Positions 354 to 60,545 are shown, counted from the first letter of the stretch. The stretch: 64,000 bases of DNA from Raillietiella orientalis (GCA_036172245.1 JAYWIR010000013.1:2604001-2668000), one strand, 5' to 3'. Numbers and translations are program-made. The notes: generated from the letters alone by a model not told the origin.

Positions 354-470
354 CGCAAGTTCCCGTCTTGTTGTGGCACTTCAGCCATCCCAGGCACTGG
401 ATGTTTTTTGAACACGGACACCCTTCGGCCAGTAGCCCGGACAAGGACACTGTGACTTTGAAGCAGAACT
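354..470 (-). CDS. Cys-rich exon FCFKVTVSLSGLLAEGCPCSKNIQCLGWLKCHNKTGTC
   Basis: ttccag acceptor, GTAAG donor, 117 nt, phase 1-1. Confidence 0.8.
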
Positions 471-3400
471 CTGGAACATCACGTGATGCGATGGTGAGCA
501 TCCTTCCCGGAACTCGGATCCCAGAGGGCGGTCGTCGATCGATCGCCCTGCGCATTGTACCTGCACAACTCAAGCCTTTGGCGGACTCGCTGGGGACGCA
601 TTTTCGGGAGAAGCACTCGTCGGATGTGGTGCAGGGACAACCGCTCGGCCGCCACTTGCGCTTCGAACACCCGTCATCTGGAACGAGGAAGCGGTCGCTC
701 GACCTCCCGTGTTCGTGGTGAGGAAGCGAACGCAATGCAAGGCGTGGCGGCAGCGTGAGCGTGAAGCTCTCCCGGAGGCATTCGCGGCGAGATGCAGGCA
801 GCAGCCAAGATTTCTCAGGTGGCACCCCAAGTCTCCCTCTCTCTTCCTTACAGGTCGTGAAGCCACGCCCGACCCACTGCGGGTGCGGGATGCATGGAGT
901 CGAAAGATACTTCCCAAAAGCAGTCGGCGAAAGCACACTGAAGCGATCCCGTCCTCCGTACCTGTGCAGTGGCGTCTCCTGCAGTGGTGTTTGCAGTGTG
1001 CATTCGAAGAACACGGGCAGCCAGGAAGTCGTGGTGCGACGGCGCAGTCCACTAAAATGGAGGGCGTGAACAAGTGTGCGGGACTCCCATGAGGACTGGA
1101 AGACCACTCCATTCTTTCAGGGCAGAAAGACGGGCGTGATCCGCCTATTCCTTCCATGCGAGGAAAGGGGTGGAAATTCCGTACCGCAAATCTTCTTCAG
1201 CAATTTCCTCCCGCATACGTTGTGTACGCAATCCTGGGGGTACTTGCACTTGCAAAAGGGAGCCTTGGGGAAGACATCGCACTTTGGATCTGCAACATCG
1301 TTTTCGAGTCAGGCGGGCGGGCAGCACACATAAAGTGACGCATCTTTGGAACTCGACACGGATGAATCGGAACCGGAAACCCTCCCGAGGAGAGTCTGAG
1401 CGCGACAAGGATTCATTTATCAGACGAAAGGAACTGATTGGTGCAGCGGAGCAGTCTGTCTCTACCCAGCCCTCTGTGCACACTTCGTGCACGCGTGCAC
1501 CACTACGGCCGGGGTCGTGCTACTCACAGCATGTTCCGTATACGGACTTCGTTTCCCGTTTCACACAGGAGCCGGAATCGCACTCCGCGTTGGATACGCA
1601 GGAGCAGCCATGCTTTTTTTTTTTTGAACACTTGTCTGCAAGAAAAAGAAAGGAAAGGGGAAGAGGGGGAGGAGTGCACCATTGCGGATTATTCGTGCAA
1701 CTCCCTTCCGTGCTCGGCACGCACCTGCATCGCCGCAACCCAGAAACCCCGTTTTCTTGTCCCTAACGCAGACGTTGAAGCACTCCTCAGGCGTGGAACA
1801 CGCGCACCCGTCTGGATAAGGAGGAGCGCAACCTGGAGAGTTGTCATGAGCCAGCCCGCGTGAGCAGCAGCAGTCCCCACCGCATGCTTTGCCGCTGCAG
1901 TACTTCTCCTCGCATTCGCCGGGCTGCGCGCAGGGGCATCCCGGAGGCTTTATGTTCTGCTCGCAGACCCCTGCACAGGACGAGATTGCGGGTTTGGAGA
2001 CAGCGCGAGGGCGAGGATCCGCGCGCGCACGCAAGCGTTCCGAACTGAGAACAACCTCCGTCGCAGAAGTGTCCTCTCGTGTGGATGATGCAAACAGGGC
2101 AATCAGGATTGCAAGGGCAACCTCCGCCTCCGGGACACGCTGGAAGCAACCCGTTTATTCCGAGAGAACAGAAAGGCCCACAGAGTACCAGTGCATTTCT
2201 TGAGGTCATCCACGACTGCCAGGCAATCGTACTTCCCGCAGCTCTTCCGACTGTCGCAGGGGCAGCCCTCCTTGTCTCCAGGAGAGCACTTGTCCTCGAA
2301 GGCTGCTAGCGCCCTTCCCGGAAAGGCACATCGCGAAGAACGAACTTTTCTCACCACATGTCTTCTCCACGCACAAGGAATTCAGGCAGTGGCTGTGATG
2401 TCCGCATGGACACGTAGGGAGTTTCGTCGCCATCGCCGCGCACGTAGCTATCAGGAAAAGCAAGCAGGGATGCAAAGATCCAATGGCGGCGTACTGACCA
2501 GCGCCCAAGGCGCAGATGCCGCCGACGCATTGCAAGCTCAGGCAGGAATCCGAGCTGCTGCAAGGGCAGAAGGCAGTGAAAGGTTGTTTCTTGCAGTTCC
2601 CTGCAAACGAGAGTTTCAGCTCCAGAGGCGTTTCACCCCACAAGGAGCGGGAAGCCCAATGGGTGGGAAGGCCGACAGTCGCGCGACTGCCTCGCAGAGC
2701 AGCAAGCTGCATCCCGACCATCCAAGGAAGGCGGGAAGAACAAACGGGGAATCTCCAGCTTCTTACCGCAGCGGCTGACCCCTTTCACGGAGACACAGTC
2801 ATAATTGCACGGCTTGTCTTTGTCGCATGGGCACCCGGGAGCTCCCGTGAACTTGCACAGCGTGTCTAAAAAGGGGAATGCTTCAAGCTTGGTGGATCGC
2901 TGCTTCAGGCACCGACTCCACTCTCGGCGCGTGTCCAATGCGTCCGGGCTGGAGGAGGTGCCTCAGGGTGGCGAGGGAACTGGAGCGAAGCGAATGCTCC
3001 AGGAAGGCTGCTGGTTTCTCGCCTCCGCCGCAAGCGACCGCAAATGGGCATCTTGCCCTCCCCTTACCTTCTTCACACTTGAGCTCGTTCAGATTGCATA
3101 CTCCTTTACACTGAAGAGAGTTACTGCAGGGGCAGCCAGGGGCGAAAGCAGGTTTGCAGCTTTCTGAATCTCAAGTAAAGGGGGGTGCGGAGGAGGAGGA
3201 AGTGTAGGTGAACTCACGGCAATAGCATCTGCTGCACACACTTCCGGCTTTGCAATCCCCATCGACCTTGCAAACGCATGATGCCTTGCCGCAGATTTTG
3301 GAAGCCGTGGCTGGAGGGGCAATTATCTCACGGAAAAGCAAAGGAAGGAAAGGAGGGAAAGAGACTTTCTTGCGCTCCCAGCTTCGCGCGGGCGCTACGC

Positions 3401-6400
3401 TGGAAGTGCCGGACAGCAAAGAGTTAGTGTGCCCGGCATGGTCACGTGGAGCGCATGGAACGAATCCGCACCGAATGGTGACCCTTCGGTGTCAGGATCC
3501 GACTTGGGCCTCCGCTGCACTGCTGGAGCAAGGAGCAGTTGCCTGTGCCTCTACACAGAGGGCGCGAACGAGCAAGAGGAGGAAGAGAAACTGGAGGAAC
3601 CGCAAGATTTGCAATTTCGAGTTCGCCACGGCAGCTCAGGAAAGGCGGCATCTTCCCGAAACCCCAAGCACTTACCACATTTGCCCTTGAAGCACACACC
3701 ACAAGCGCACTGGGAATGATCCGTGCACTCGCACTCCGGGGGGAATGGAGGGTTCGCAGGGCACACCATACGACCTAGGACGTTACATCCTTACCAACCA
3801 GCTGACATGTTCAGGACATCTTTCAACACAGTCTCATGCGCGATCGTATAAGGGAAACAAACCCCGACGGTGCGTTTATGTCGGCTCAGGGGCTCGTTCG
3901 CACGTCTCCCTAATCATCGTCCGCAATCGCCTCTGATTGAACTCTTGATTGAGATGCGCGCGCACGCTCTATGCTCCTTGCTTGCGGGCTGCGATGGCGA
4001 AAAGCGGCCACTGCCCATCCGCTCTCGCCAATAGCCAGAGAAGTTGCTGACTCGGCGAGTCGGCTCGAGGCCAGTGGACTTGACCTCATCGCTGACCTCA
4101 GAAAAAGCGGATTGGACTTGCGCGCGCAAAAACCTGTCGGAATGGAATGAAGGCGCTGGACGACCTCGAGATGGAGCAACGAGAGCGCAAGGGACTGAAT
4201 GGAACCACGGACGTGCAAAACAAGAGGACTCACTGCATATTCCTTCCACGCATCTCAAGGATTTGTCGCAGTCTTCGTGCTTCTCGCACTGGCAGTACTC
4301 GTTGCGGTTCTCTCCGCTGCAGAGGGCTGCAAGAAGGCAACTTTTTCCCCACCTCCATCACGAAGGGTTGATGGGATGCCACGCGAGTGGGGAAACTCCA
4401 CGGGCGACCCGGCAAGATGGAGGGATGGTGGTGACCTACCGCAGACTTCGTCCACGCACGTTCCGCTTGCACACTCGAAGCTGGAGCTGCAAGGGCAGTG
4501 GGGCAAGAGCGGTTCCTTCTCAGCGCAAGCTGCATCTTTGCGGGAGAAGCCAGCAAGTTGGCTCGTATTCGTCCCTGACGCCCACTTACCACAAACCCCG
4601 CCGTAGGCGCCGTAGAATCTGCAGATGAGTTTCCCCGAGCAGCTTGAAGGGACGGAACACGGGCACTTGGCTGGTGCTGGGTACACACACTTTGCTGGAT
4701 GAGAAAGCCGCCTGTTTTGTGTTTGGGAGCAGTGGGAAGGTACCGCAAGAGCATTTGGCCGCACACCACTTGGGATGAGGACAGAGGCATGTTTTCCCCG
4801 TGGATTTGCACGCAGCAGACGGGACTGGTAAAGAGAGCACACAACATCACAACTCGTACGGGAGGCAACAAGCGAGTTCCGTCTACGACACTGCAAAGTG
4901 TTGAGGAGGGGGTGCCGAAAGGGCGTGCCTGGAGAGGGTTCCAGGTTTACTGAGAGCGGAGGTTCCACTCATGCCGGGTGCTGCCGACTCGCAGGCAGGA
5001 GCGCGACGAGCTCCCCTTTCCCCCAGGAGCCAAGAGTCAATCGGAACGGGAAGCACTCTGGATGCGGACTCGAACCACGGCGAGTCTGCGGCAAGGAAAT
5101 GATGGCCGCGTGGGGAATCGGGACGCAGATGCGAGACAAAAAACGGTCGATGCGCGTCGCATGAGGCGAGCTGGGAGCGACCCTCTTGCAGCTGCGAGTT
5201 CAAGTATGGCCGGATCCACATCTGCAAGGCAAACTACGGTCTGTAGCAGAGTCAAGGGCGGGCAAGGAAGGCCACAGTGACCTCATTCGACCTTTTTTTC
5301 TTCCTTTTGAGGGAGGGGAGAGACCTTTTCTACCAGGCAAGCCCAGGATTTGCTTGCAACGTAACAGCGGACCTCGAAGCAGATTGCAGCTCAGGGGTAC
5401 TCACCGCATATTCCTTTCGTACCAGTCCTTACGCAGGAGTAACCCGGGGGACAGGCGCCACCTGCTGCCAGCCGCTTTCCGGCGGTGCAGTAGCCAACTA
5501 GAAGATACAGAGGCATGTTGTTCTGCCCGCACCAATTAGCACGCAGGCGTTCTTTAGGGATGAAGACGCACGCCCGGGCGCACTTCGCGAGGCACGGAAG
5601 TGAGGCACGGAAGCGAGGCGCCTGAGACGCAGAGTGACAGGTGTCGGGAGGTTGCTGAAACCGAGCTCTTCCAGGACGGGAACCGTGAGAGACCCTCATT
5701 AGCGAGCTTCCTAGAAGCGGCCCTAGGTCACCCAAAGGAACCCACCGCTCGATCCGCTGCGGGGAGAGACTCCGTCCGCGAGTGCGCAACCCGCGCCTCC
5801 CCGGCTGACCGACCCATTCGAAGGCACAAGTAGCTGCGGCTGCCGATTCCTTTGCAACGCTAGAGAGGAGGAAAGGGTGGGGGTGAAGGTGGTGGTCGCT
5901 TCTCGAGCGCATCTTCGCGTGGAAGAAGCAAGGCCAGCCGGATTAGGAAAGCAAACACCTTACTGCATGTTGACGTCACTTCGTCACATCTTCCCTCGCA
6001 GTCATCAGGAGCAGCACACGCGCAGTTGGTCGTTCCTATCTCTTTCATGCAGGGAGCTACCAAGAGGAGAACATCAGTTGAAAAATCTTGCAGCGAAAAA
6101 TCGGATGGCAAATTGGCTAGAGGTGGATGATTTGCTGAGCAGCAGCAGTGGCACTCGATGCTTCGCGTATGCCTGCCAGCCTCCGGACGGCAGCGACCAT
6201 CACATATTGCGATCCAGGGGGAGCCATTCAGGGGTTCCCATTAAAGCCGGCCTCCCATGTCGACGACGCCTAATCTCAGTTTCCGCATTCGCGACTCTTA
6301 CATACAGCATCCTCCATGACAACACGTGCCGTGCCTCACTGTGAGGATGGCGGAACCAGTCCATGGGATTCCTCGTTCCAAGTCTTGGAGGCCCCTTGAG

Positions 6401-9400
6401 TAACGATAACCAGCAGACCATCATGGAAGGTCTCAGGGATGTCTGCGACACAGGCTCCAAAAGCATCAAGTGCGTGACCAGTGCTATCCTAGGTGGGTCC
6501 CTAAAGCGGATCCCAGACGACGACGGGCTCGATGCTGTCAAACGTGCACATCCAGCAGTGGAAGTCGGTGCAGAGGGTTTGTGGATTCACGAGCATTGGC
6601 GTAGGAAGCACAGGCACGAAACGCCTTCGTAGCCCCGTGACACGGGCCTACCGAAACGGCTGCGTTGCAGCTCATGGTTCGCGAGGTCGGTGATTGGATC
6701 GCAATGCCTCCTTCGACCCAGGTCAGGGGCGCCATTTCCGGAAATGGCGGCGTGCTCGGCGGTTTCCGAACACGCGCACGTTCTCTTCCCGGGAAACCCT
6801 CAACGCCCGTTGCATCCATTTTGTTGAAGCGTTCTGAGCGGAGTTCCTCACGAGTTTGCAATGGGTTGTCGGGATAAGGGGCCGCTACCTTACGGTGAAG
6901 AACAAGGAGTCGACACTTACCGCAGTATCCAGCGTGACACACTCCGCTGGCGCACGTCGCAGGCAATGAACACTGGCATAGAGATAGAAGGGGAGGTTTC
7001 TGGCAGTCTGGAACTGAGAAACAGCAATTCTTGGGATGTCTCCTCTGGACCACCCTTCGACCGTTGCATAACCGCGACCACAAGCACCGCCTTGCAAGTC
7101 TTCCGCAGCCCGGGAGGCTTGCAAGGGAGCGATCACAAGTGGCTGAAGAGCAGAGTCATGAGGCGCTTACCACAAGCTCCGTGTGTGCACACGAGGAGTC
7201 TGCCGCATTCGGAGGATGCTTTGCAGGGACATCCCCTGTATTTTCTGAATTTGGAGCACCAAGCTGAAAGGTGTTGTCATTATCACACTTGAGATGCAAC
7301 TCCAAGGCACACATGGGATTTTGGTCTTTTGTTTTTATCCGTTCCTTGGATACACGAAGAAGGAGTGCCCCGTTTCTCATGCGAAACGAAATATATCGGA
7401 GGGCGGGAAGGCACAGAAGCGAAGGAGCAGAGTACCTAGGGACGGCCTTCCAGTGCGTGCTTAGCGATTGCTTCTTCGGTTGTTGACCACTCCATGGTTC
7501 ATCATGCATGCGAACTCATCTGAGGCGGCGGAGAAGGGCACACTTCGGGAGAGTGCTCTGGGCACTGACCTCAAGATGACTTACGCGATGAGCCACGCCC
7601 GAGTGCAGCTGAAGGATGGAAGCGAAAGGAACGATCGCAGCGATTCGCGCACAGGACCACCGATCCTCGAGGGATGCCCAAGGCTGTAATTCAGCTTTTC
7701 GTGCTGAGAAAGGAAGGAAGCTGGAGGCTGGGAACGTGCACCACTTCCTCGCTCCCTTCCCTGCATCAGAGCGAATGAAGGAAAGGGATGCGCACGTTGC
7801 AATCCAGCGTGATGGAGTGGACAACCCAGCAAGCACCCTCGTCCCAGAGGTTCTTTTATTTCCCCCCCTCCACCCTCTGTGATGCGGACACCGGGACCAC
7901 ATCACTGGAAGGCACCCTCCCCGCCATGGCACGATGGGTGGCGAAATGACGGGCAGAAGGACCTTCCGAGTGAACCCATCTTCGGAAGCCGAGCCGAGGA
8001 CTTCCGCTGCATTATTCGCCTGCGCGTGGTGAACGGAAGCACCCTTTCGTTGCTGCGTTGGCGCGTCCGCCCGCATTCCCGTGCAAGTGACCGGGCAATC
8101 TTGACGTGGTTGTGGCTTTCTGCCGTGCCTTCCGAGACACAGTGACGCTCTTCGAGCGGCATCGCGAAACTGAAGTGAGGGGGGAAAGGAAGGGAATCTC
8201 TCCCAGGGGAACTCCGTCCACCCATCCCGGAGCGTTCCGGCACTCTCATTCTGTGGGACGGGCAGTGTCCGTTGCCGAGACTACGCTGAGAGCCACGAAG
8301 GAGATCGGTGGGGATCCATCGCGTTGGCAGGCGACTCGGGACACAAGAGACTCCTCCCACTCCTGCCCCCGCGCGAGAAGTGGAAGGAAGGGAGGCACTC
8401 GGACGGACCTTTCCCATCAGAATTCGGGAGCGTCGGAAAGGGACCGGGCACTTCCTGGCGTTTTCGCCCCCTTCCCCATACTGACCGCATGTGCCTGCTT
8501 CGCACTTTGCATTCAGGCAGTCGTCATCCGAGGAGCAGTTGCATCCAGGAGATTTGAGCAATCCGCTGCAGTCTGGAACTGCAAAAAAAAAAAGCAGAAG
8601 CATGAGATGAAGCTGATGTCTCCGCCGAAATCCCTTCCGGAATCCCCACAGAGCAAAACCCAACACCGAAAAGGGAAAAAGAGGGCATCTTTTCTTTCTT
8701 TCTTTTTTCTTTCCTTTTTTTTTTTTTTTTTCTCCGAGACCGGAGCAGGAATTTCACCTTCTTTCCGGTCTTTGCATCCCGGGGAGGACGCTATGACGAC
8801 GGGCATCCAGGATGCCTGTCGAGGTTGCATACAGGAGGGAGGGGGTGAAAAAGAGCGTTGACCCGCAAGGAAAGAAGAGAGAGGCATACCGCAGAGTTGC
8901 GTTTCCTCATCGCAGGTGAACGGGCGGCTGCAGTCCTCAGGCAGGAAGCAGTCACAGTAGACCTCACGGCCCCTCCCCATGCAAGTAGCTGAAATGCCAA
9001 GAATTCCTTGGACTCCTTTCGGAGTTTGCCGGAGCAGCGCTCCGGCTGGCGAGATTCCGTGAAAGACTCAGTCGGAGGGAGGGAAGGAATTGACAATCGC
9101 TCCGTCGAAGATATCGACAGATTGCTAGAGGGAAAGCAATGGGTGGAGAAACGGAACGCTTACTGCATTTCCCATTCTTGCACATGTGGGAGGAGCAGTC
9201 TTTCGGACCGGAGCAGGGGCAGGAAGGCGCAGAATGCCATCGAATGGAGGGGCATTTTCCCGGAGCATACACTGCAAAGACATAGAGGTTTTCATCACAC
9301 AGAAACGCGCGTCCCCTTCTCTCAGCACGGGACGATGCTGAGAGACCACTGAGAGAGCTGCATCACGTTGGAAGCGAGTCTGTGGCTATTCTCCCGGAAT

Positions 9401-12400
9401 ATGCAATAGAGACCCAGGTTTCCATCTTTCAGCATCTCTGGGGTTCTGTTGTCAACTCCGTAATGACTCACCGCGGCCAGAACCTTCACAAATGGAGTCT
9501 TGCAGCCTGCGGTCCCTAGGCAGATGACTTCAAGAGACCGGAAACAAGTGCTCGCTCTAGAGTAGGGAGAAGGAAGATTCCTCCGTCTTTCTCTTCAAAG
9601 ATCTGCTTCGTGCATGGCGACATGCATCGCTGGCGGGAATCATGCGGATGCGCTTTTGGCGGCCTTATCTTTTCATATGGCAGCGGTCGCATGTTTCGCA
9701 TCAGCGCATCACCAGGAAAACGCGCCACTCTATTGCCATGTTTCACTTGCACGAAATGGAACCAGACAACAGTTATGGTGAAGACTTTTAAATATCCATG
9801 CATATTTCGTGGAAAGGCAGGAGTTGCGCGTGCGCTTCTTCACTTTGACACCTGGGAGAAGAGCTCTTTTCCTTTGGATGGGGAGGTGCCTGACGATCGC
9901 AGCCGCATGGTCGAACCTTTCCCGCATAGAAACCGCCTTCAAAAGGGCGATCTCGAATCTGGATATTGAGTCTGCAATCGCGGATAAAACTTTGTAATTC
10001 AGTGTCTTGAGATTCCGTGAATGCTACTTGAAAGTCCTTTTCCACTGTTGCATCTATGCATTGGTAAGCCTGACGTCTGGCTGAAGGTAATCGAAGGATT
10101 CGCAAACAAGGTGAGGAAAGAATTTGTCGGAAAGCATTTGCACCCTGAAAGCTGTCAAACTTTAAGCATCTGCTGAGATATCAGCGATCCTCGGTTCACC
10201 TAGACGGGATTCCAGAATTTTCTTTCCGGAAGCGGCTTTGCGTTCTTCGACAACCGAAGTTTTCCAAGCCACTGAGTTTCGAGGCAAGAAGGTTGTTTTT
10301 CAGAGGGCGGAATCAAGGTATGGGGAAGTCAGTTCAGAGACCCCGTCTGATAATCCCTGCGGCACTGCTTGTCTGCCCTCCGGCACTGAACACGTCACTT
10401 CACGTTCATTTGAATTTGGAAAACAACACTTGCATTCTTCGTTCAGCAATGTCACGTTTGTAAGCACCGCTAAAGAGCAAGAAATCTGGGGGCTACAGAT
10501 TTCGGTACGCAAATGCATCTCTCCTCCCATAGCATCAAAGGAGCAAAGAGATGCTCCTTTCTTAGCAAGGAGCTTAGCAAGGAGCAACATTGTCTCCCGT
10601 GTCTTCATGTTCGTGCTTGTTAACCATTCAATGTAACGCTCGTCTGTTGATATGCAAGAGGAGTACGAAGCCGTTCAATTTACAGCAACAACGAACACCA
10701 TGGATCTTATACGTGATGACCGCGTTTTCCAAAAGTCATTTCTTCACAAAACGGCAGCCCAGTATCTGCCGGAAGTGTAATTCTTTCCCGTGCAGTTGAG
10801 GGAATCACTTGCGTCTAAACGAGGTGTGTGAAACGCATGCGCGAGGCTGCAGTCAAGTGAGCGATCGTGACCTGCGTGACTGGTTGTGCCCATGTGCATC
10901 TTCGCTTTGCTTCGAATGCTTTTCTGCAAGTCGGTACTTACTGCACAATTTGGCCTTGCATTCCAATCCTGTGATACATTTTCGTCCATTGCAGGGACAG
11001 TACACCACCCCCAACGTTTTTTCACAGTACGGTCGTGTTTCTAAGATGAGAACACTCTGCTATAGTTTGCAAATCGGGAGACAGCCTTCGAGTTTGCTCC
11101 CTTTGCATCGAAAGGGCTTTCAAGAATTTGACAAATTTTGGTAGCACCATGCGTCTGCTAGCACTTTTTATTGCGGAATCGACTGCACTCTTAACTACGC
11201 TCGAAAGCACCCCTCCCGCAAAGAAGCACTATGAACTGATTGCTGCAATGTGGGTAAGCATTTTTACGAACCACAGAATCCTGCAGTACACGTCAAGTGG
11301 TTTTCACAGTCCATGCTAGACAGACAAGGGCAGTCTTCGAGACCAATGAATCTGCTGCAAGTCTCTGCAAAGAATGATTAGTGAAATTGGCCACGATTCC
11401 GTTTCCGGATGTGATGATTCCGCTGCTTTGTTCTGCGGGTATCTTCGAGCGATCGAGATATTGGATTTCATGTTGGATTTAGGAACAAAGCTAGAGGAAC
11501 CGAGTTTTCAGGTGAAACTCCTTTTGTTTAGGAATGGTGCATATTGTTCAAGTATTCTTCGCTGTAGCGAATATGTACCAGCGTTCATAGGGACGCTGCC
11601 GAAAGTTCCGTTTCGTGAAAGATCAGGATACATGAAAAGTAGTGGCTCTCGATGAGCTCAAAACTAAAACAGCAGCAGCAGCTTGTTTCCGCTCACGAGG
11701 CGGCTTACCTCCGTCGTCCAGCACGAATCTCTCAAAAGAGCACACGTATACTACGTGGGCTTCTTGTCTGCGTGGGAACCGAACATTGGAATCAGTGTTA
11801 GGGGTGCTTGGCTATCGTGGTGAAGACCGTTCACATTTATCTTACCGCACAATCCGTGTTTGCAGGTTAGACTTTCGCATTCCTTGTTGTCTTTGCATCT
11901 GCAACCAAAAGGCTTGATCTTCTCGCTGCAATTGGGAACTGAAACAAGCAAGTCACAGAGCTGCTAGTTGACGGAAGTGTTCACCCCATGCTTGTTCACG
12001 AAAACCAGCGCAGAGTGAGGACCACTCGAAAATGGCCAAGTACGCTCGTAGCGCCATTTTTGAAAAGGGACGAATGTATGGAATGGAAAGCCGAGAAGGA
12101 ACGCACACGCCGAAGCCTTTCGATGGCTTCAAGGAAACGAGTGACTCCCTAATGAACCATTCCGTGCTGGCAATTCACGCGTCTTGCATGGAAAAAAGGA
12201 ATTCTTCCCATTCCCGTTCGCTGAGCCTTTTCGGGAGCGCAGGAAAGACAACGGAGAACCTAAAAAAGAGACAGTCGGCTACCTTTTTCGGTCTTTGCTC
12301 TCTTAGAGACGGATGTGTCTGAGACATACGATGGAGTCCACCTTGGTATTCTCGACTCGATCGCTAATTTTAGCTTTTTGCAACTACTTCTTGCGAATTC

Positions 12401-15400
12401 TTCGCAAAGACAATTTTTCTAGATGTTATGTAACCTCAGTACTTTTTATGTGAGAGCGCGAAACTCCGTTTGAATTCCGGCATTCTCTTCTCTGTCTGTG
12501 TCTTAGTTTCCAGTCCCTATGGATTATTCCAGCTCTCTTCGCAAAGGTAAGATCTGCGGCAAAATGTGCAAATTCATGATGGCATTTTGGTCACACCCGC
12601 TCCTCAAGGCTACTGTCGATTCGACTGCGTCTTTGAGAAGCGTTATGTCCGAGAGCAGATGCCCCCCGTTCCACATGCGTTCCATGTCCGAAATGCGTTT
12701 GAGTCTTCAGCGACTGCACTTTGAGCATGATTTCCGGTATCTCACTGGAAAAGAGTAAAGGTGTGCTGTCCTGGCCGTGAGTCGAGTAGAACGCAAGCAA
12801 TCAGTTCGTGGAGTTCCCTCCTTCGCGTCGCGTTTTCAATAGGAAGAAACTCTTCCAGCGCCCCCTTGTTGAATGAAGAGGAAGGCAATGTGGAATCGAA
12901 CGCGCTTGTCTATTACTGATTTACCCATTGCTTCCCCACGCTGGTTTTCCGATTGGTCTACCAGAAAGCGGAATGCAGCCCCACACCCCGAATGCTAGAC
13001 TTTTCTATGCAGCTTTCGACCAAATTTAGGAGAAAACCCTTCACGGTGATTAAAGATCTTTCGTCGCTACTGTCCAGTTACTCCAGCCAATTTTCTTTCC
13101 ATCTTGCAGCAACCTTGAGCTACCATTGCTTGCTTGCTTCCTCCCATGAGACGCCTTGCTCTCTTCAAGGCTGCCTTGCAAGAAGACTTGGATCCAAATC
13201 CCGAAAGGTTACGACAAATACATGTGTGCGCTTGTTCGACACAGATTAATACACCAATTTATTTTTATATGTATATTCATTCGTATTTATTAACATACAT
13301 ACTATAAGGAATAATAATACGATTGGAACAAATACGTTTATTGAGGTTCATTCACATGCATCCGATCGATAAAATTCATAGACGTTGGGTATATTGTTGA
13401 TACATGTACAGTGAGGATCATGGAAAATGTATGCGCTTATCATATACATCAATTTTTATGGATAATGTAAATATGTATATGCATACACGATATAAATATG
13501 TAGAAATGTATGTACGAATATGTTCATAAATATATGTATCAATGTTAACATAATAATTTTCCTGTTTACAATATGTACGTTGATAAATAGGAATAACTGT
13601 GTGCGTTCCAATGAATTTGTGTAATAATCTATGTAGAATAAGCAAATGTGTATTTGCATTTCATGACCTCTCAGGATTTTGATCCTTCAGGATTTCAGCT
13701 AGGCGATTTTGCATATGACCACCGCCGCCTTGCAAGCAGCGGAGCAGTTCGACCTCCCTGCTCTGCACAAGACCTCGGCAGCGGTATTGCAGCGGTTGCA
13801 AGGACTGGTGGTCCAGCCGAAGAAAGAAGTTGGAAAGTCATACCAGTTTGATTCCGACATTTCTGATAGCAGAAGCCATTCTTCCCGTTGTGAAGTCTTT
13901 TCGCCGTTGCCCATGTATTGAGTGAGGGCTTTGCCTGTTTGGCAGACCAGCCGCTCGCATGTTTTGTTCGTTACCTTCCCCTGTGGGGCTGGACTCAAGG
14001 TGTGCTTTCGTGCCTTCACCGGTGTTGAGACCGAATCACACGGCCTGGTACTCCTTTTCGCAATGTGCAAATAGTGCAGATGCTAAACCGAAAAGGTAAC
14101 ACCGAACTAAGGAACGTAGCGAATGAATTTCCTTGATGCTGATCGATCGATCGCAATTCCTGCGGCCCTGAGACGAAGAACAGCTAACTGTTAAACTAAC
14201 GCTGGCAAGGATTCCCGTTCTAACGTGTTCCGACGTGGAAAAGAACGAGGCAAAGCAAGACAACCCTCTCCACGAGTCCCGATTTGCCCATTTCATTTCA
14301 CTCACAAGCAGAACTTGAACTGTGGGCTCTTTACTTTTTTTTTTTTCAATGTAAGGTCCGCATGTTCCTCTGTCGTTAGGATTTCTTAACAAGGGCAAAC
14401 AACTGGAGACACAATTCGCAAAAGCGCGTGCCAATTAGGGAAAAATTCCTCTAAGTAACCAAGAAACTTTGCAGAGCCATGTTCCCTGTAGCCAAGGGCA
14501 CCGAAGCCAAGCTTTCGCAACGAGCCAAGCACTCTCATTTTGAAGATGTTCCTTACCGCACAAGGTGGTGTTCCAGGATACTTTGGAGCAATTGTAGCGG
14601 GGTGCGCAGGGACAAGGGCAGTTGAACTTGCCGAAATCAGGCACACACACGCCTGCAAAACATGAAAGAACAAAGTTTCCTGGGTACACGTGTTTTGCTG
14701 TTCCGCTGACTTTCTCACCACAGTGTTCGAAATGGAAGGTGAAACTGCTTTCTCGCTAACAAAGACACGCACAAGGTTTTCTTATCGTGCAGTTCAAAGA
14801 CACTGCAACCGGATCGGAGCATAATCAACTCTGCGTTTGCTCCAAAAAGGCAAAGACGAGCAAGCAGAGCTCCTGAAGCCGTGGGAACAGCATGCATCGG
14901 CAAAAACGATCTAACCATTGCTTTGCACGCGGCCACGGTTGCGCGATGGACGGTTCCAAGAGACTGAAGCGCCTTGAAGTGGTGAAGGTCACTCGGAAAC
15001 GCAAGCGCCGGATGCTCTTGTGGTAACGGCAGGCACTGTCAGCAATCAAATCCGATGTGGTACACTAACGCGCCGCGATGAAACATCACACCGGAGACTT
15101 ACATCTCCGGCCCCTTCTACAAAATTCTGTGTGCCCACACCTTCGCGCATGTCAGCAACTCTCGAGATGCTGCTCCGTTCGCTCAGTGTCAAGCCCTAAC
15201 GGAAGAGGAAACGTACCGCATTTTCCTGCAGAACAGAATTGTATGGTACAGTCATCAGGAGACTGGCAGGAACAAGACGGATTCAGTGGTTTTAGATTGC
15301 AGGCTATCTCTGGAAAAACCATAATGCACAAGTATGAGATTTTCGTGTAAACCAGCAAAGATGGCATCTTTGATTACGGTGAGGTAATCAAGCAGGTCAT

Positions 15401-18400
15401 AGCAATGGCGACAAAATGCAAGTTTGCGCACAGTTTGCGGGCTAAGCAGGTTTGGAAAAACTTACTGCAGAGTCCCTTGGTGCAGCTGAAGTTGTCGTCG
15501 CAGTCCAATTCCGTGGTGCAAGTCTTCGATGTGCCTGGAATTGCATGCGAAACAGTGCAAAGCAAGTCTTCGAACCCCGTGGCAAACAGGCTCCACGGAG
15601 GACGCGTTGGGAACTACACATCGATTTCGGATGGCATGCTCATGATTCTAATGTTGGAGGTGGATGGAGACGAGTTTAAAATGGGACAGCTTTCAGGGAA
15701 ACCAGCAAGCTTCTTCATGGCCGTTCTGTTTGCCCGTGTAGCCCTTTTTACAAGTCGCCTACTTTCCGGCCCGGAGACCAACTTCCGTTATTACCACGGA
15801 GGAGCTTTCCTCAAGTATTTCATGTATTTCGTACAAATGTTTACGCAGGAAGAGTTGCAACTGAGGAAGCGTTCGAGTGAAACGCTCTTTCCAGATTCGA
15901 TTTGAAATCAAAACTGAGAAGAGCCATCCACTCAACCGAGCAGTTGTGTCTACGAAACAGCAGGAACTCGGTCTTCGTCAACTGGAGAATGTTGAGTCTG
16001 GGTAACCTGATGAGGACGGGATTACAAGAGAGGCTGGCTCAAGATGCGAAGTCGTCTCCCAGGCTGTCATCTGTCAGCATTCGTTCGCACTTAGGGCGGA
16101 AGTTTCAACGGACCTCCCGCTCCAAGTTCCCCTCTGAATTTCCCTCCTTGAACAGGCGGGCTCTGCTCATAAATTGAGCGCGTCCCTCCCTTTCCGACGT
16201 GCTCGCTGCCCAGCATGAGTAACTGGAAAGAGGTCAGGTTCCTCTACAAATGGAAAGTTGCGAAAGTAACTCGAACACTTTCAGTACGAAGCGGTACGCT
16301 CCTCTATGCAAAACCGTCTAAATTAGATCTTCGCAACTGCCCGGTTGAGTACGAAATGCCGCAGCGTTTCCCACCATCAGCAGCTGCTGCTTGCATTGAC
16401 ACAATGATCAAAGAGAGACCAGTGACGCGTTGCAAAGAAACTGTGGTACTAGGGCGGCGTCCTCAGCCCAGCGGTAAGCAACTCCTGCTTCCCTGAATGG
16501 TACGAACCATTTTTCAAATCAGAAAATAGTCGACTGAACGTATTCTGGTCGACTATTTTCTGGCCAAACCTACAGTCGAGAATAAGCCCTTTGCTGACAA
16601 CTGCTCCTGCTCTGCTCTGCGCTCGCATTGAAAAAGACATTCGCGGGCATCCAGCAAGGTGTGTGTTGAGGTCAAGTGTGTCGTCCGTTGGGAAGCGTTT
16701 ATTAAACTTTGGTGCAAGAGGGAGAACTCGGTTGAGTCTGGCCAAATTTTCCACTTACTGCATATGAACCCGACGCAGGTCTTAGACTCACACCAAGTGT
16801 CTTTCTTGCATGGGCAACCAACATAACGGGGTATCTTATCGCAGTCCTTTCCTGTAATCAGAGGGCATCAGTTTTTGCACACACTCGAGAGCATCACCCA
16901 TTTGCGGTGAAAGGGAAGCAGGACCGCCGCTTCTGGTCCCCCGAAATGACTTACCGCACTCATTGTCCTTGCACAGGAGTCCAGAAGCACATTCATTAGG
17001 AGAAGTACACGGACAGCCTTCTGGTTTGGAAGCAGACGGACAATCAACTAGACAACAGAAAGGGAAAGTTATCCTCGTGTTCTCGTTGGCACAAGGTTTC
17101 CAATCTGGAGGCAATGCTTAAAAACTCTAGCGGACTTTGGCGAAAAAGTGCAACCAATCTGATGTGCACAACACACTCCCCATGAGGGGAGGATATCCGC
17201 ATCTTTCTGAGAGAAACAGGTTAATGAAGCTTAAGACACTCTGCTTCCCGAACGTTCCAGCTTCTTGAGTACACCGAATGGGTCGATTCGCAAAATGGAA
17301 AATACGGGAGCCGTACTTCCCCACGGCCGAGCGAAGCGCTTCATGCAAACTGAGTGGGCAGAAAGCACCTGGAAGGTTCACCCGGAGTGGTGCTGCTCGC
17401 ACACAACCACGTGCCTCCAAGGAGATTGGTCTGTAGTTTCCTTCTTGCCGACTTTCCGTCAGCAGATGCAAGTCAGCTGGCGCAAGCCACATCGGAAGGC
17501 TACCTTCGAGCGGTGCATGATCGAGCGAAGCTAAAAGCTCTTTTCAAGGAAGCAAGCAATTGCGGGATAGACTCGAAGAAGGAAGATGCCCGATCTTCAA
17601 GTCTTCGGCACTGGGGGGATTCGCTGATAAACGATGAGAAGCTGCCGTCGAAACCGCCTCCCCTCGTACGCCACGGAACTCTGCTCAAGATTTCTGATCC
17701 CACACAAAAAGTTCCACTCCAAGGCAGTTCAGAACTGCTGCGAACACGTTGTTGGTTAAAGATGCCTGTAAATCGCGTGTATATTCGTCGAACGCACCAT
17801 ATTGGCCCCGTACAACGTGTGCGACCTGGATGCCGCATAGGTCAAGGGGCTGGTCGGGCGAGTGGTGATGGAAAATCCGGACGTGCTGCTGGCCCTGCTG
17901 GGGAGCGTGATCGACCAGCTCAGGGCTCAAACCGAGTGCGTGGTTATGCTTTGCCCTAGTTTGCTGCTGGATCCAGCTCTTGAGTGCAAGAAACTGCTCC
18001 CATGTGTGTCGACCAACGTTAGAGGTTCCCGCACTCGGCGGAACGATCGCTGCAAATGCGTTTCCAGCTGCGTAGATTTGGATTGCAGCGGACTCCGAGC
18101 AGCGGTCTTCACTTGTTGACGATCTTGGGGTGGTTGCATTTCCCAAGGAAGCCCACCAAGGCGCAGCTGGAGGAGGAGGGAAATCGAGCATGATCCGCTG
18201 GTGACTCGCCCAAGGCTCAAGGCTGTGAGGAGGAATTCTTTGTGATGCGTTTCGCAAAGTGCTGCAGAGGAGGAAACTGGCCGGCCAACGCACCTGAGTC
18301 GCGTCGCGCTCGAGGGAAACTGGCGGACCGGGCTTAAGCGGGTTCGGGTAGGAGGAAAATTCCTATTCGGATTTCCCCGGGGCTGCTGGCAGAAAGCCGC

Positions 18401-21400
18401 GAAGCAAAGACTCCTCGGTCGCGCGGAAGGAACGTGCCGGCGGGAAGATGGGAACCAACTTACGGCAATGTCTTTTTATGCACGACCCGCTCATGCACTT
18501 GTCGCCAGTCACGCAAGCGCATCCTGAAGGCCGCTTGTCACTTGGGCAAATCAAATCTTGAGGACATTCGGGAAGTTCTCATCAACCGACTTACTGCAGA
18601 TTCCTGCCATGCACTTGTATGGGGGGTCACAGGTGCCATTTACGGCACACGGGCACCTGTACTTTCCGAGCATCAGTTTGCACGTTACTTCGATTGGAAA
18701 AAGGGAGTGACCAGGAAAAATGGCTGCAACCCGGGGCAAAGGATGCACTCACCACATTTCCCGCTTTCCGAGCATTCCAAGCCGTCGATGCACTTGATGG
18801 AACTTGAACACGGACAGTTGTATGCAACCTTCTTGGATTTCGAGCAACCTGGAATTGATTCGACGGTGTGAACGCGACGAGATCCGATGTGCGAGAGGAT
18901 GATCGACACGCCTTTGACAGGCATGTGTGAAGCGTGGAACGGGCCGAGAGGCATCAGGGGACCCTCTCCCCTCCCTCCCTCCCTCCCTCCTGCGCGACAG
19001 CACCACTTGAGAGAACGGAACATTTCCCGAGTTTCGATCCCCCGCGGAGTAGCCGGACGAGTCCATGACGGTCACGGGAAACAGAAACGCGCCATGTTTT
19101 GCACGACTGCTGGCTGATCTTTCGAAGGCATCGGCGCCGTGCACGCAGGTGCGCTTTCTTAGAAGAAGGAGCGAGTTCCGCTTTTGGACGCACCACCAGA
19201 AGGAGCTGACATACTGAAAATGCTCACCTGGAGTCTCCGGTTCCGGACCTGCAACGAGAAATTCCGAATGAAAAGCTTGAATTTTGTCAACCGGATAGGC
19301 GGGGAGGGGATCACCACATAGGGGAAGTGCAAAGTGACAAATTTTCCCGTTAGCCGAAAATTCTCAAAGGATCGGGGATGCATACCGGGAACCGGATCGT
19401 GTCTCGGTAGTCTTTTCTCGCATTTCTGCATCGCGCCGGAAGGACCGGAAGCGTTCCCGAGTGCACACCGAAACGGCACTGCGCCACCTTCGCACGTGCG
19501 ACATCCACTCAAGCGATGACAAGAAAGGAAACCCTCGAAATATGGGTATGTGTGTGGATCGCTCTCGGATCGTCCACTCGGTGCTCTCGCTGGAGAGATG
19601 CTTTTCTTCCCGGTGAACACTGGGGAGCTGCCTTTCGTAAGCCTTCATGCACTCCTCCGTCGGAATGCTCACCCGTATGGCGAGTAGGCCGCTCGTTACG
19701 CCCGCTCGTGTTTGCAAAGAATTCGTTGCACGAGCAGCCTAGTTTTGCCAAGGTGTTCTGCAGTCCAGCAGAGGCACCGCACGACAGAGAAGGGAAACAG
19801 TCTTCCCCTCATCCCGTTGACGATGGGGCCGTCCACGCCCGCAAGCGTAAACTCGTGTGCGCGTGTGGAATGCGACGGAAGCTCCGAGACAGCAAGTGAG
19901 TGGATACGCCTAGCGCAAGAAGGGAGGCAGGAAAAGATCCGGATGTTGCCTGCCCCTGAGTGAGGCAGCATCAAAGTCAGCAGAGCAGGAGGCTGCCTGG
20001 GTATGGAAGCCTCCTGCTCTGCCGTTCGGCCGTCGGCATGCGGATGAGACACTCGGAAACTGGGTTGGTGCAACGAACGGCGGAAGACTGCAAGTTTCGT
20101 TTCTGCTGCTGGAGGAGGGACTGCTGGAGAAGCGGATGCTTTTCGGATCGATGGTCACGAACTGAGGAACAGTCGACTTAGCGTTTCCCAAGAGAGTCGG
20201 CATCGAGCTCTGCAGATTTTCTTGCAGCGACTCGGTGCGGAAAAGTGCGTAAGGGGATACCGCGGACGCTAAGTTGACGTTCGGCCACGCAGTCGGCAAG
20301 CACCGCGCTTGGCCCGAATGTGCCAGCTGCGTCGAGCCTCTCACCGCGGTCGCGAAATTTTCCACCATGCACGCGTGAATTCCTGCCAAGAGGAGGAGGA
20401 AGGTGAATCCCCCTTCTCGGACCTTCCCAGCTGCCATTACGAGCAAAGGAGGCGTGCCACTCACGCGCGCTTGGAAACGCGTTTGTGGCGCACCCTTCTG
20501 TGTAGACAATTTCGATATTTCCTGTTTATTTATTAATATATATTTAATATCGAAATTTATCACCTGGAATGACCGGGTGGGTAAATTTCGATATTCCCTG
20601 AAGATGCGACACTGAGAGCAAGAGATGCACGCAAGTAAGATGGAGCAGAACGATACTTACATCTCTCTTTCTCGCATATGCCTCTCGCTGCGCAGCAGCC
20701 TTTGCATTCGTCTCCTTTCCTTCCTGAGCACTTGCAATTCTCGTCCTTGAGAGCCTGCATCTCGCAAGGCACGTCCCCTTTCGGATCTAGGAGGGAAGAG
20801 ACGAATCACCTGGAGACCGCGGATTCCTGGAGTATGCCGACGACATGTGAGCGATCGCACGTACGCGGCCGCGCGGCTAGCTAATGCGGGCACTGCGACC
20901 TGAGGGAGGTCAACGGAAGGCTCTCTCATTCAGAGACGAAGAGCGTTTGCGTGCTCCGCTTGGACGTCTATAATAGACGTCCAAGCGGAGCACGCGCGCA
21001 TCTGCACACGCGAGGAGCGGCAGGCGCGGAACCCATGCGCGTGCACTGAGAGCGGTTCACAGCCACGGAGGAAGGGAGCTGCTCAGATGAGCGAAAACCC
21101 GCAGACCTGTTTTCAGGGTTGGAGGTCGCTGCCGGCGGCAGCCACCGTCGGAGTTCCGCATGCGCAAGAACTGTATGCTTCGGAAGGGAAAGAAATGGCG
21201 AGCCAAAAGGAACAAGCTCGTTTGAAATGGCATCCCCCGATGAGCGGGAGACACGCGGAATGCGCTAAGTTGCTGCGGCGGTGAGCGCAGGGATGTCCAA
21301 CTCTCTGAGCACTCCGGGAAACGCGCCAAATGGGATTTCAGAGTCGCAGCTCTGAGCACGCAGGCGCAAGCTCCCGCCAGGATAGAAAGGGGAAAAAAAG

Positions 21401-24400
21401 GAGGGGTGGGGATGACTTTTTGCGTGAACCGAGAGCTGGAGTAAAAAAAAGAATTGAGCGGGAAGTTGCGTTGGCGGCAAGAGGCAAGAACTGCTAATGA
21501 ATTTTCGGATCACTCTCAGTGAATTGCTCGAGCATGATCTCAAGACGAACGCATAGGCCGCTCGTACGTCTGAGCTGTGGAAAAGCCTCCTCCTCCAACT
21601 CGACTCACCTGAAGGGCACCCACACTGGTACACGTCAAAGCTGATGGAGAAATTCTTGACTAAAGTTGTGATTGAGAGCACGGCCTCCCCACTCAAACGC
21701 AGAATTGCTGAAATGGAATTCCTGAAGTATAGAACACTCATCGAACACCACCAGTGCTGTTTGCACTGAACGTCAGCGCATCAGCATGTGGTTTCTCGAT
21801 GGCTGACGACGGTTCGGTAGATGGTAGCGATAGGAAGAAAAGATCCAATCCCTGGAACTTGCGGGGATAAGCGAGTGTCAAGGATGGAATGCAGTGAGAT
21901 CAACACATTCGCAGTCGAATAATCCTCTGCCTTGACGGAAGAGCACCTGGGCGAAAAAATTCTCCTGCTCTTCCTACTAGGAAGAGTAGTAGTTGGTTCA
22001 CTGAGCAGGAACTTGGGCCTGTCAACATGAGCACAGCACCTCTGTGACCAGTGCTCTCTTTCAACAAGTACAGTGTGGTCTCACATCGATGACTTTTCCT
22101 AGTCTGCCTTGTAAGGATGATGATCAGGAGTTTCCACAACGTATCCCCTGCGATCGTGCGATCCAAGCTCTTCGGACACCCTTCCGATTCGGATCTCATA
22201 GTGTTTCCTTTGAAAAACAGGAGCCCAGAACTGGCAGCCGTCCTCTGTGGTCTCGGGTATCGGATAAGAGGAAACGGCCATCAGGAAGGATGAGTAAAGG
22301 GGATCTCGCCCCGTGGCACTGCTCCCCTTGCTTTCATGCTGAATGCATTCTTTCTTTCCCTTTCGGGCTGTAACTTTTGGACGTTTCTTCCTTTTCATAA
22401 ATTGCCGTGAGCGCGAATTTGCTGACATCTTGCGTGATCTTGCCTTCAAACTTTTCGTTTTCTTTTGCTTTTCAAGAGCAGAGACAAGGAAGGTACTTGC
22501 AACCTATCCAACAGCAGCGTCTATTAGAAAGACTTTGCTCAACACAGATTGTTGCTGCTTCTTGCGGGGAATAGGAAAGCCATCCACACCGAATGATCGA
22601 AAAACGAGCCACGTGATGCAGTTGCACTGCTTTCCGATCTGGAACCTGCGTTCGCCAACATCGCTGTTTCAGTGCGTAAAGTTTTTGTTCTCCAAACCGG
22701 GTTGAGATCACCATCCTGAATGTCATGAACCAGTTTGATCGCAACGGTCCGTTTCTCACGAGGCGCTCTGCAAGAATCCCAAGCACCGTGCTTTGCATAT
22801 TTGGAAGGAGCACACAATCCCCAAGAAAGTGAGCGAACGAGCCACTGGGTTGATGAAAACCATGCGTACGTTACGTAACCCTTCCGTTCTTTCCACTCAC
22901 TGGGTGGTAGAAGGAAAAATTCCGCCGCGATGCACGATTTGCTTTCAACGATCCCTCGCTCCTACGATTTTTTCTCCACTTGCTACCTGTGCGCAATGGT
23001 GCACATCTCCACGGTGCTCTAACTGCCTAGCAGTTTCACCTTCCGTGTTTAAGACATCCCCACAAAGGGATGTACGGAGGGCGATCGGAAAGCACTGCAG
23101 AAAGCAGCAGAAGAACGATGCATTGGTCTGCGACAGTGCTTGACGCACAGAGGTGCTTTTGAGCAGTTTCCACACTCCGTTGTCGAGCTACCTGGGTCTC
23201 CAACGCGCCTGTGTGCTCGTGAGAGCACCAGACAAGTCTTAGCCGGAAGCTGTTTCCCAGAACGTGCTGCGATGCACTGGTTTTCCGAACTTTGGTCAGA
23301 GAACTCGGGTTGCACTCGTAGCAGAAGGGATGGCAATTTTTTTCGGGGTTTGCGAGTGGCAAAAGGAACATTTGGTTTCCCTACTCCTCATCCCGATTCC
23401 AAATTTGTATTTTTCCGGCAGAAGAGTGGTGAGATTCCTGCTATCGGTCCCCATTTTTCGCTGCAGGCACCCGTGTTCTTACCGACGTTCCAGGATCGAC
23501 ACGAAGGGTACCGTTTTCAGCACAAGGGCAACATCCCTGAATTTCGAGAAGCGCGGTTACCTTGTTCGCCACTTTTGTTGCCGCAGACGATATGCTGCAC
23601 CTCCTTCCGCTGATCCAGCTGCTCCAAAGATATCGACTGTGCGGAGAAACACTCCTTCGTTTGCTGAAGTCCCGAAGCCATGAGTGCCTGTATGAAGTGG
23701 ATACTGAAAAGCAACGGGAAGATATTCTGTATGGGTCCTGCTCAATCCTCCCAGAGTGAGGTAACCAATCTGTCGTTCTTCCGATCCGAAACACCCACAC
23801 CCAGCAGTGCTTGAAGGAATGGCCGCGAAACACCCTGAAAGCAACTTCGATAGAACGCGAATCGGAAATGCGATCTGTTTTGCGACAAGAAACTTTCCAG
23901 TTGAAGCCTGCACGAGGTGGACATCCAGTGGACCAGGTAAAGATGTTTCTTGAAGAGTTGGCTGACAAGGATACCTGAACCCTCTGCCTATTTATGACTC
24001 ATGAGAGAGCAAACAGAGACAAGCCCTTTCCCTGGATCGCACCCTTGTCAACCCTCACCGTAGCAGTTCTTCGCCATATGTTTCCGAAGCACACAGACAA
24101 TGTGTGCGATCGCCACAAGGATGCTAGAAACGTGTGAAATGCTGCGCTCGCCCTTGAGGTTGCTTTTCTTCGCTCAGGATTGCTGCTCTCCTGCGCCTGC
24201 TGCTTGTTCACCTTCGCCCTGATCTTTCAAAAAAAAAAAAAAGAAACGGCGATTCGTGTTTCCTCCATCGGTCCGCCCGAAACAAGACATTCGCGATCGC
24301 TTGCACGCCATTCGATCTCCGCATTCAACAAGCGAAAGTCTTTTTTCCCTTCTCACGTACGATATGCACTTCCCGACATCCTCGCAATCTTTCGCGATGC

Positions 24401-42572: not shown

Positions 42573-43381
42573 ATGTGGCTTTCCTTGATACGAAATGACC
42601 AAGGGAAAGCCATGTGCAGCGTTGGATTACACGAGGATTCCAGCCACTTCCTAACTTCGGTTGACCACATTCGTTTCGATAATTATCGCTTCATCCACCC
42701 CGCAAGGCTAAACGTCCTGTCCATAAGAGGAGCAGCAAGAAGATCACCGGCCGATCGCATATGCCGAGGGTGCAGCTGTCAAGATGAGACATTACCACAC
42801 ATACGAAACCACTGCGTAATGCTTTCCCGATGTACACCTCAAGACACAATGCAATCGTGCTGCAGCTGCAAGCAGGCGCCACCAAAGGTAGGAGGATGCA
42901 AGCTTGCATCACTGGACCAAAGGATACCCGAAGTCGACGCCCCGTTGAGGCCGAATCTCATCTTCCAAAAACACGGAATGCGGATCATAGTGGACGTTAC
43001 TTGCCCATTCCAAGGCAAGGAAAACGCGTTCACGGAAGCGAGAAGGAAAAAGGAAGAAAAATATCAAACTAATCCGCAGCATCAACCACTCCGGAAAAAC
43101 TGCCATCATGCAAGTTTTCATCGGGGGATCCCGAGAACTACACCGCACTAAGACTGCTAGGCATTAAAAAGTTGAGAAGCTATCCACAGCATGTTGCATC
43201 AGGACAAGCAGTGACTGGGTTATCCACCCGACGATGCGAGCGGCCCCGTCGGCTACATAACGAAGAAGGGACAACCCAAAGATCGGTCCACTATCAACTA
43301 AACAGCAGCGCACCGATCGTCATGGAAAAGCCGGAAGAGCGGGCGGAGCCAACGACAATGATTCTGCAGATGTAAAAAAAA
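42573..43381 (+). mobile_element. 3' fragment of an RLE-type non-LTR retrotransposon (NeSL/Utopia/R2-like), frameshifted
   Basis: DQGK, RFIHPARLN, CRGC..ETLPHIRNHC zinc knuckle, RHNAIV, LRPN(D)L, IIVDVTCPF and KEEKY motifs, then a short A tract. Confidence 0.85.
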
Positions 43382-43399
43382 ATTAATTGAACCAAACAG

Positions 43400-46300: not shown

Positions 46301-46461
46301 GTCCTTGCTGGGTCGCACCGGCAGGCGCGGGCGTCAGCTGTCCGAAGAGAGAGAGCGCTGCGTTCTCCTCCAGATTTCACCGCGGAGAGCACAGCCGAAC
46401 GCTTCGCTCCGCACGCGACCCCCACCAACCGCACTTCTCCTGTCTTTGCAGTCGCTTTCGA
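43400..46461 (-). mobile_element. Degenerate L1/Tx1-clade LINE: ORF1 with CCHC knuckles + APE endonuclease, 3'-truncated
   Basis: CAFCETAGHARWSC; APE motifs SLNC, LQETH, NVYG, MGDLN, IDHVL and SHHPV; frameshifts and stops. Confidence 0.85.
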
Positions 46462-46626
46462 AGGAGGCTGCGCGAACGCAGCCTCCCAACCTAAAAATTA
46501 TGCTTCCGAGTAACCCGCATTTGGGGTTATCGCGGAGGTCAGCCCCGCCGCCGTGCAATGGCAAGGCCTCGCTCCGGAGGAATTGCCATCGTGAACACAA
46601 TTAAGACCTCGAAGCCAGGTAAGTAT
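46462..46626 (-). ncRNA. U1: U1 spliceosomal snRNA, copy 1
   Basis: Reverse complement of 57292-57456. Confidence 0.92.
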
Positions 46627-46639
46627 GAAACTTAACTTG

Positions 46640-60530: not shown

Positions 60531-60545
60531 GTTTGGTTCAATTAA

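Follow-up and report, generated by a model that had tools for sequence, protein, structure and literature searches.

The placing of one module on each symmetric phase-1 exon is the classic rule of exon shuffling. Insect Eater and Nimrod are membrane receptors with a stalk of many small six-cysteine NIM repeats, the NIM repeat being a variant of EGF, and hemicentin and VWA7 carry a VWA domain of the VWA_4 type, the body of hemicentin consisting of Ig and EGF domains. In Drosophila, dumpy has internal exons that are all but one divisible by three, and exclusion of exons has been seen by reverse-transcription polymerase chain reaction (RT-PCR) (PMC2930355). In Dscam-type splicing, competing RNA structures are formed in which multiple selector sequences pair with one docking site (PMC6071210, PMC8042237). 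Here we analyse an array of cysteine-rich exons in a 64,000-nt stretch of DNA from Raillietiella orientalis (GCA_036172245.1, JAYWIR010000013.1:2604001-2668000; the window), for which an earlier note had proposed a combinatorial or Dscam-like set of splicing cassettes behind a constant VWA head. We conclude that the array is an ordinary exon-shuffling architecture in an unclassified family.

The module of the array probably differs in its cysteine spacing from the NIM repeat, and it is unlike the Ig and EGF domains of the hemicentin body. Heads of the hemicentin or VWA7 type may have a counterpart in a pair of collinear VWA_4 fragments, one with a DTTGSM motif, that lie upstream on the same strand, but these matches are below the gathering score and no relative was found in the PDB. 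The closest parallels are with dumpy, which likewise specifies a giant, cysteine-rich modular protein, extracellular or membrane-anchored, on small exons (PMC2930355). The DPY module of that protein has the spacing Cx5Cx5Cx4C (PMC12723725); the gaps between the third and sixth cysteines of our module equal the 5,5,4 of DPY in six of the 37 modules, and are 5,4,4, one residue less, in 11. The differences are that the present module has six cysteines, two of them extra and in front (C-x8-C-x), that no EGF modules are interleaved within the window, that a VWA-type head may be present, and that exon exclusion has been observed for dumpy whereas our array is known from sequence alone. With Dscam1 the array shares tandem exons of similar size in what would be a surface-protein gene. 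It differs in that each exon holds a whole and highly diverged module, that no docking or selector signal was found, and that many introns are very short.

Results

The array runs down the minus strand from 20786 to 354 and comprises 37 exons with one module each, limits identical to those of the earlier note. All positions refer to the window, which has a G+C content of about 44-59% and is eukaryotic DNA with GT-AG introns. The 37 models are predictions from the genomic sequence. After a regular-expression scan for six-cysteine patterns, a donor scan (a Cys codon, one base and GT, with an open cysteine-rich frame upstream) gave 30 candidates, 27 of which became exon models, and 10 further exons were placed by inspection. 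The coding segments of this series close with TGCG/GTAAGT or a variant of it. Three candidates were dropped: the sequence at donor 19783 is no module, donor 3700 is an internal GT of the exon at 3676, and donor 1881, as a separate entry, is the same exon re-anchored.

The length of every exon is divisible by three, and the total is 3651 nt, or 1217 codons. Sizes range from 84 to 126 nt. The maximum is the one claimed earlier, the minimum is not (it had been put at 69 nt), and 93 nt is indeed the commonest size, found in 15 exons instead of about 13. The others measure 96 nt (four exons), 99 nt (four), 108 nt (three), 90, 102, 105 and 117 nt (two each) and 84, 114 and 126 nt (one each). As had been claimed, the phase is 1-1 throughout, the first two bases of each exon completing a codon and the last base opening the next. 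In 29 of the 37 exons the end falls one base past the last Cys codon, and in 28 the start falls one or two residues before the first cysteine. The exon boundaries are thus fixed relative to the cysteines of the module, and the phase pattern is no artefact of splice-site choice. All acceptors end in AG (26 CAG, seven TAG, four AAG), and 24 donors conform to GTRAGN, the remaining 13 being weaker. Exon 37 closes with a donor (TGCG/GTAAGG), so that the gene does not stop at 354 but extends past the left end of the window. If this donor is unused, the minus-strand frame runs on into positions 1-353 and stays open over about 115 codons until it meets a stop in the vicinity of position 14; this frame has neither a cysteine module nor an obvious hydrophobic anchor, and could be an alternative terminal read-through or plain intron.

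Directly upstream of the array, also on the minus strand, lies an exon at 21609-21721 (113 nt) with a CAG acceptor, the donor CAG/GTGAGT and a single open frame. This exon, named in the earlier note, closes in phase 1 and so fits exon 1. Joining it and the 37 exons of the array in all pairs gives 703 joins, of which 696 keep the frame and create no stop; six of the seven with a stop involve exon 1, which ends in T. The claim that almost any subset could be skipped in frame thus holds, as does the accompanying caution that symmetric phase-1 exons by themselves prove no alternative splicing, the in-frame property coming with any phase 1-1 array of modules.

Aligned, the 37 modules follow the consensus x-C-x8-(G)C-P-C-x5-C-x4/5-C-x4-C, after which comes the codon that the intron splits; their modal spacing is C-x8-C-x-C-x5-C-x4/5-C-x4-C. 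Reading frames are open in all modules. Six cysteines are present in 32 of them, seven in exons 1, 23 and 24, five in exon 7 (where the C-x-C pair lacks its first cysteine) and four in the degenerate module of exon 19. The seventh cysteine of the neighbouring exons 23 and 24 suggests a disulfide between the two modules; if they pair, the loss of either exon through skipping would leave its partner with a free thiol. When a profile of the 37 modules was run against all six-frame open reading frames (ORFs) of the window, it scored above 12 bits on the exon models alone (36 of 37, exon 30 going unreported), and over both strands of the 64 kb nothing outside the exons exceeds 9.5 bits. The same profile search of six-frame ORFs found no decayed module relics in the long introns, so that no module looks dispensable.

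The copies have little in common beyond their cysteines: identity at the other positions averages 13% and reaches 37.5% at most. Neighbouring modules are no more alike than distant ones (permutation p 0.84), and no periodicity was seen up to lag 12.

None of the 37 modules reached a Pfam family. The best sub-threshold names were DUF7107 (0.0029), CC (0.0046) and Lustrin_cystein (0.011), followed by Dickkopf_N and EB, each from one member, and no module matched Dumpy_DPY (PF21164) at E <=1. Against the PDB the module profile had a single match, to the DPY module 1oig of Drosophila Dumpy, with an E of 0.28 that is not significant. A search with hmmsearch of 1.84 billion representative proteins returned 22 matches at E <=0.001, the best at 1.9e-12. 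Eight of these were read: seven share just the widespread hairpin motif C-x5-C-x4/5-C-x4-C, the eighth (P0006) shows the complete six-cysteine spacing in one module at its C-terminus, and none of the eight holds an array of the module. P0006 is an unnamed protein of 277 residues with an N-terminal membrane helix, several four-cysteine hairpin repeats and a C-terminal C-x9-C-x-C-x5-C-x5-C-x4-C. An ESM Atlas search with the 81-residue read-through of exons 31 and 32 gave 0.88 at best, among bacterial clusters of Dickkopf_N, DUF7107, EB and DPY type, which are leads at most. AlphaFold2, run on one module with the 37-row alignment, gave a mean predicted local distance difference test (pLDDT) score of 60.2, too low to trust. 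We therefore treat the module as unclassified, with six cysteines and a core that resembles DPY, and assign it to no named family.

The introns differ widely in length. From intron 1 to intron 20 they measure 1812, 65, 38, 1416, 103, 1191, 156, 564, 2618, 481, 231, 1670, 175, 311, 1222, 157, 864, 466, 710 and 54 nt, and from intron 21 to intron 36 they measure 113, 459, 365, 54, 202, 166, 51, 52, 49, 85, 48, 89, 238, 133, 284 and 90 nt. Eight of the 36 are of 38-65 nt, and for 14 of the 37 exons neither flanking intron exceeds 300 nt. In the 5´ part, the exon clusters 2-4, 5-6, 7-8, 13-14, 16-17 and 20-22 are set apart by long introns, while exons 24-37, the 3´ third, are joined by introns of 48-284 nt. 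This packing favours a reading of exons 24-37 as a constitutive block, as judged from their spacing. AAG acceptors are concentrated on the mini-introns, with three among the eight introns of at most 65 nt versus one among the 28 longer ones (Fisher p 0.028).

The individual exons came from the donor scan unless inspection is stated. Exon 1 (20661-20786, 126 nt; inspection) scores 13.3 bits with the profile, and the codon formed at its junction with exon 2 is one more Cys. The first cluster consists of exon 2 (18753-18848, 96 nt), exon 3 (18595-18687, 93 nt) and exon 4 (18464-18556, 93 nt); the AAG acceptor of exon 3 (18688-18690) stands behind the 65-nt intron, and that of exon 4 (18557-18559) behind the 38-nt intron, the shortest in the array. 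The idea that exons 3 and 4 are mutually exclusive, the 38-nt intron being too short to splice, was considered and dropped. Exons 5 (16955-17047) and 6 (16759-16851), both of 93 nt, are followed by exon 7 (15466-15567, 102 nt), which has the AAG acceptor at 15568-15570, and by exon 8 (15217-15309, 93 nt). Exon 9 (14557-14652, 96 nt) lies between introns of 564 and 2618 nt and exon 10 (11846-11938, 93 nt) between introns of 2618 and 481 nt. Exon 11 (11272-11364, 93 nt) has the weak donor GTTCGT and precedes exon 12 (10942-11040, 99 nt). The pair of exons 13 (9164-9271, 108 nt) and 14 (8890-8988, 99 nt) is followed by exon 15 (8486-8578, 93 nt; inspection), with the donor GTCAGT. Four exons of 93 nt come next, at 7171-7263 (exon 16), 6921-7013 (exon 17), 5964-6056 (exon 18) and 5405-5497 (exon 19), and then the cluster of exon 20 (4590-4694, 105 nt), exon 21 (4440-4535, 96 nt), whose AAG acceptor (4536-4538) is behind a 54-nt intron, and exon 22 (4234-4326, 93 nt). 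Exon 23 (3676-3774, 99 nt) adjoins exon 24 (3218-3310, 93 nt).

From there the exons are exon 25 (3068-3163, 96 nt; inspection), exon 26 (2767-2865, 99 nt), exon 27 (2499-2600, 102 nt; inspection), which again has the donor GTCAGT, exon 28 (2355-2447, 93 nt) and exon 29 (2189-2302, 114 nt; inspection), with the donor GTACTC. The least certain models are exon 30 and the 48-nt 'intron' between exons 31 and 32. Exon 30 (2056-2139, 84 nt; inspection), the weakest, has the donor GTTGTT and an atypical cysteine spacing in addition to its absence from the profile results. Exon 31 (1881-1970, 90 nt; donor GTGGGG) and exon 32 (1725-1832, 108 nt), both placed by inspection, are separated by a gap that is in frame and free of stops, so that the two could be a single exon. 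The array continues with exon 33 (1528-1635, 108 nt), exon 34 (1185-1289, 105 nt), exon 35 (962-1051, 90 nt; inspection) and exon 36 (561-677, 117 nt; inspection), and its last model in the window is exon 37 (354-470, 117 nt; donor scan and inspection).

The search of the introns for complementary docking and selector sequences that the earlier note had suggested was run with exact k-mers only, and gave no excess over shuffles that would point to such a system. There was no hub: even the most widely matched 9- to 12-mers find complements in no more than three other introns, a number that block shuffles reach too. Total complementarity between introns is at most marginally above that of dinucleotide shuffles, with a count of seven at k=13 (shuffle mean 2.3, maximum 6) and counts within the shuffle range at k=11, 12 and 14. 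Nor did any 8- to 10-mer common to many introns stand clearly beyond shuffles, except pyrimidine runs, and a search for repeats found no intron repeat families, the output consisting of the junction of donor and Cys codon and of isolated inverted pairs. The intron upstream of exon 1 contains a perfect hairpin of 23+23 nt with a 1-nt loop (20949-20995, 163 nt from the exon; -51.2 kcal/mol, z -8.35), of which the window holds no second copy or complement. Thus the exons are complete modules of 84-126 nt and not paralogous alternatives for one segment, and, by exact k-mers, no docking site complementary to a selector beside each exon was seen. The Dscam-like part of the earlier proposal therefore falls, on the 13% identity, the lack of a neighbour effect, and the lack of a docking or selector hub and of an intron motif; the DNA sequence holds no positive sign of isoform diversity.

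Two pieces of a putative head were found further upstream on the same strand as the array. The first, at 40725-40952, would be the start of a VWA_4-type domain, with the metal-site-like motif DTTGSM at about 40868 (PF25106, E 0.0015, 18.5 bits, profile positions 3-49 of 169); the second candidate, at 35740-35916, matches positions 90-133 (E 0.0052, 16.8 bits). They are collinear, and positions 50-89 and 134-169 were not found. These matches were drawn from 245 ORF scans (148, 92 and 5, a few ORFs being scanned twice). A domain split over exons gives a low score for each piece. In a protein-language-model search the first fragment fell among integrin-beta and VWA clusters, which is a lead at most. 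Against the PDB (phmmer) the head fragment had chance matches alone, with E >1, and no word-sharing homologues (residues 135-215) were found among longer proteins. Pfam recovered no VWA family at E <=0.1 in 148 minus-strand ORFs of at least 30 residues between 20.5 and 33.6 kb, and Yos1 alone in 146 ORFs of at least 110 residues beyond 22 kb on both strands; a scan for the DxSxS motif gave nothing useful. A faint Vwaint match at 27239-27412 (E 0.048), the one related hit among the 148 ORFs, was not trusted. The constant VWA head of the earlier note thus survives in part: there are two collinear sub-threshold VWA_4 matches upstream, but they are weak and lie 15-20 kb from the array, not adjacent to it. 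We regard a VWA_4-type head as weakly supported by these matches, and its union with the array in one gene as plausible but unproven.

The far part of the window contains a near-perfect inverted duplication (42910-50729 versus 53174-61018) with 15 collinear arm segments of 120-893 nt, 92-100% complementarity and a spacer of about 2.4 kb. Such a palindrome could be genuine or could stem from the assembly. Each arm has one U1 small nuclear RNA (snRNA) gene (46461-46626 on the minus strand and 57292-57457 on the plus strand, 127.2 bits each), and a Yos1-like ORF occupies 46721-47323 in the left arm. A minus-strand open frame of 555 codons (49787-51451), situated in the inner part of the duplication, has no Pfam match at E <=0.001.

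Discussion

The array may be best explained as forming the stalk of a very large invertebrate protein, either secreted or anchored in the membrane, with at least 37 disulfide-bonded modules and at least 1217 residues. Each module would consist of a DPY-like four-cysteine core with an extra C-x8-C-x loop in front. The layout of one module per phase-1 exon would result from growth of the array through the duplication of one symmetric exon; the duplications are probably old, and the copies would have diverged while selection kept them intact. The ability to skip exons in frame would then be a by-product of this history, and as such is no evidence for a generator of diversity. The stalk may serve to hold a VWA_4-type head off the cell surface, and we consider it probable, with some reserve, that it is spliced constitutively for the most part or as a whole, as the intron lengths and the intact modules suggest.

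Several observations weigh against this reading of one long, constitutively spliced protein. Seven exons (1, 9, 10, 15, 18, 19 and 23) are short and flanked on each side by an intron of at least 300 nt, an architecture prone to skipping, and 13 of the 37 donors depart from GTRAG, a raw count. Exons have been found excluded in dumpy by RT-PCR (PMC2930355). Both VWA_4 pieces score below the Pfam gathering score of 27 bits, the 14 kb from 35.7 to 21.7 kb yielded no recognisable coding exons, and the link between head and stalk is a putative one.

The first of these points bear on a regulated skipping of cassettes as in dumpy, by which exons or clusters in the 5´ two-thirds, such as the clusters 2-4, 5-6, 7-8, 13-14, 16-17 and 20-22 and the isolated exons 9, 10, 15, 18, 19 and 23, would be left out in some tissues, with the same head but a stalk of varied length and composition. 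A short exon, long flanking introns and weak splice sites are correlates of exon skipping across eukaryotes (PMC6142364), features that are seen in the seven exons between long introns and in the 13 non-GTRAG donors, and nearly all joins between exons would preserve the frame without creating a stop. Patthy has argued that the symmetry of modules accounts for the frame-preserving exon skipping of animals (PMC6335736); some skipping would therefore be unsurprising, and the array is not thereby special. The donor count, however, is a raw one, exons 24-37 are joined by short introns, the modules have each been conserved and no decayed copy was seen, and the odd cysteine counts of exons 23 and 24 argue for their joint inclusion. 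We regard such skipping as possible but on the unlikely side. A special form of it, a stalk of tunable length in which the 5´ clusters are skipped as regulated units and exons 24-37 form a constant base, so that the VWA_4 head would stand at graded distances from the membrane, seems to us quite doubtful.

The array could also lie outside the VWA gene, either as a separate gene that starts somewhere from 35.7 to 20.8 kb or as an unexpressed relic. The lack of a recognisable coding ORF over the 14 kb that separate the last VWA_4 fragment from the exon at 21721-21609 would agree with this, as would the failure to find an array-bearing protein among the 1.8 billion representatives (eight of the 22 matches read). 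A relic, however, would not be expected to keep all 37 frames open and its splice sites and cysteines intact, and against a separate gene stand the strand and order, which match those of the head, and the exon at 21721-21609, whose splice sites are good and whose final phase is the one needed by exon 1. We hold either version to be very improbable.

A Dscam-like mutually exclusive choice, in which one exon, or one for each sub-cluster, is picked through pairing of docking and selector sequences, would find some encouragement in the 15 exons of equal length (93 nt) and in the perfect 23-bp hairpin upstream of exon 1, but is extremely improbable given that each exon is a whole module and not a version of one segment, with 13% identity outside the cysteines, that k-mer hubs of 9 to 12 nt reach at most three other introns, with no shared intron motif and total complementarity that is marginal at most, that nothing else in the window is complementary to the hairpin, that eight introns of only 38-65 nt leave no room for selectors, and that one 31-residue module in place of 37 would be no stalk.

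If combinatorial splicing of the array were true, an arthropod-like animal would have a second route, besides the Dscam type, to diversify a surface protein, for which the sequence gives no support. A stalk of tunable length, if true, would provide a surface code written in stalk length and not in variants of a binding site. What the locus does offer is a clean case of one module per phase-1 exon in a family that has no Pfam entry and for which the search of 1.8 billion representatives gave no array protein among the matches read, and a map of intron lengths that marks the exons most worth testing for skipping.

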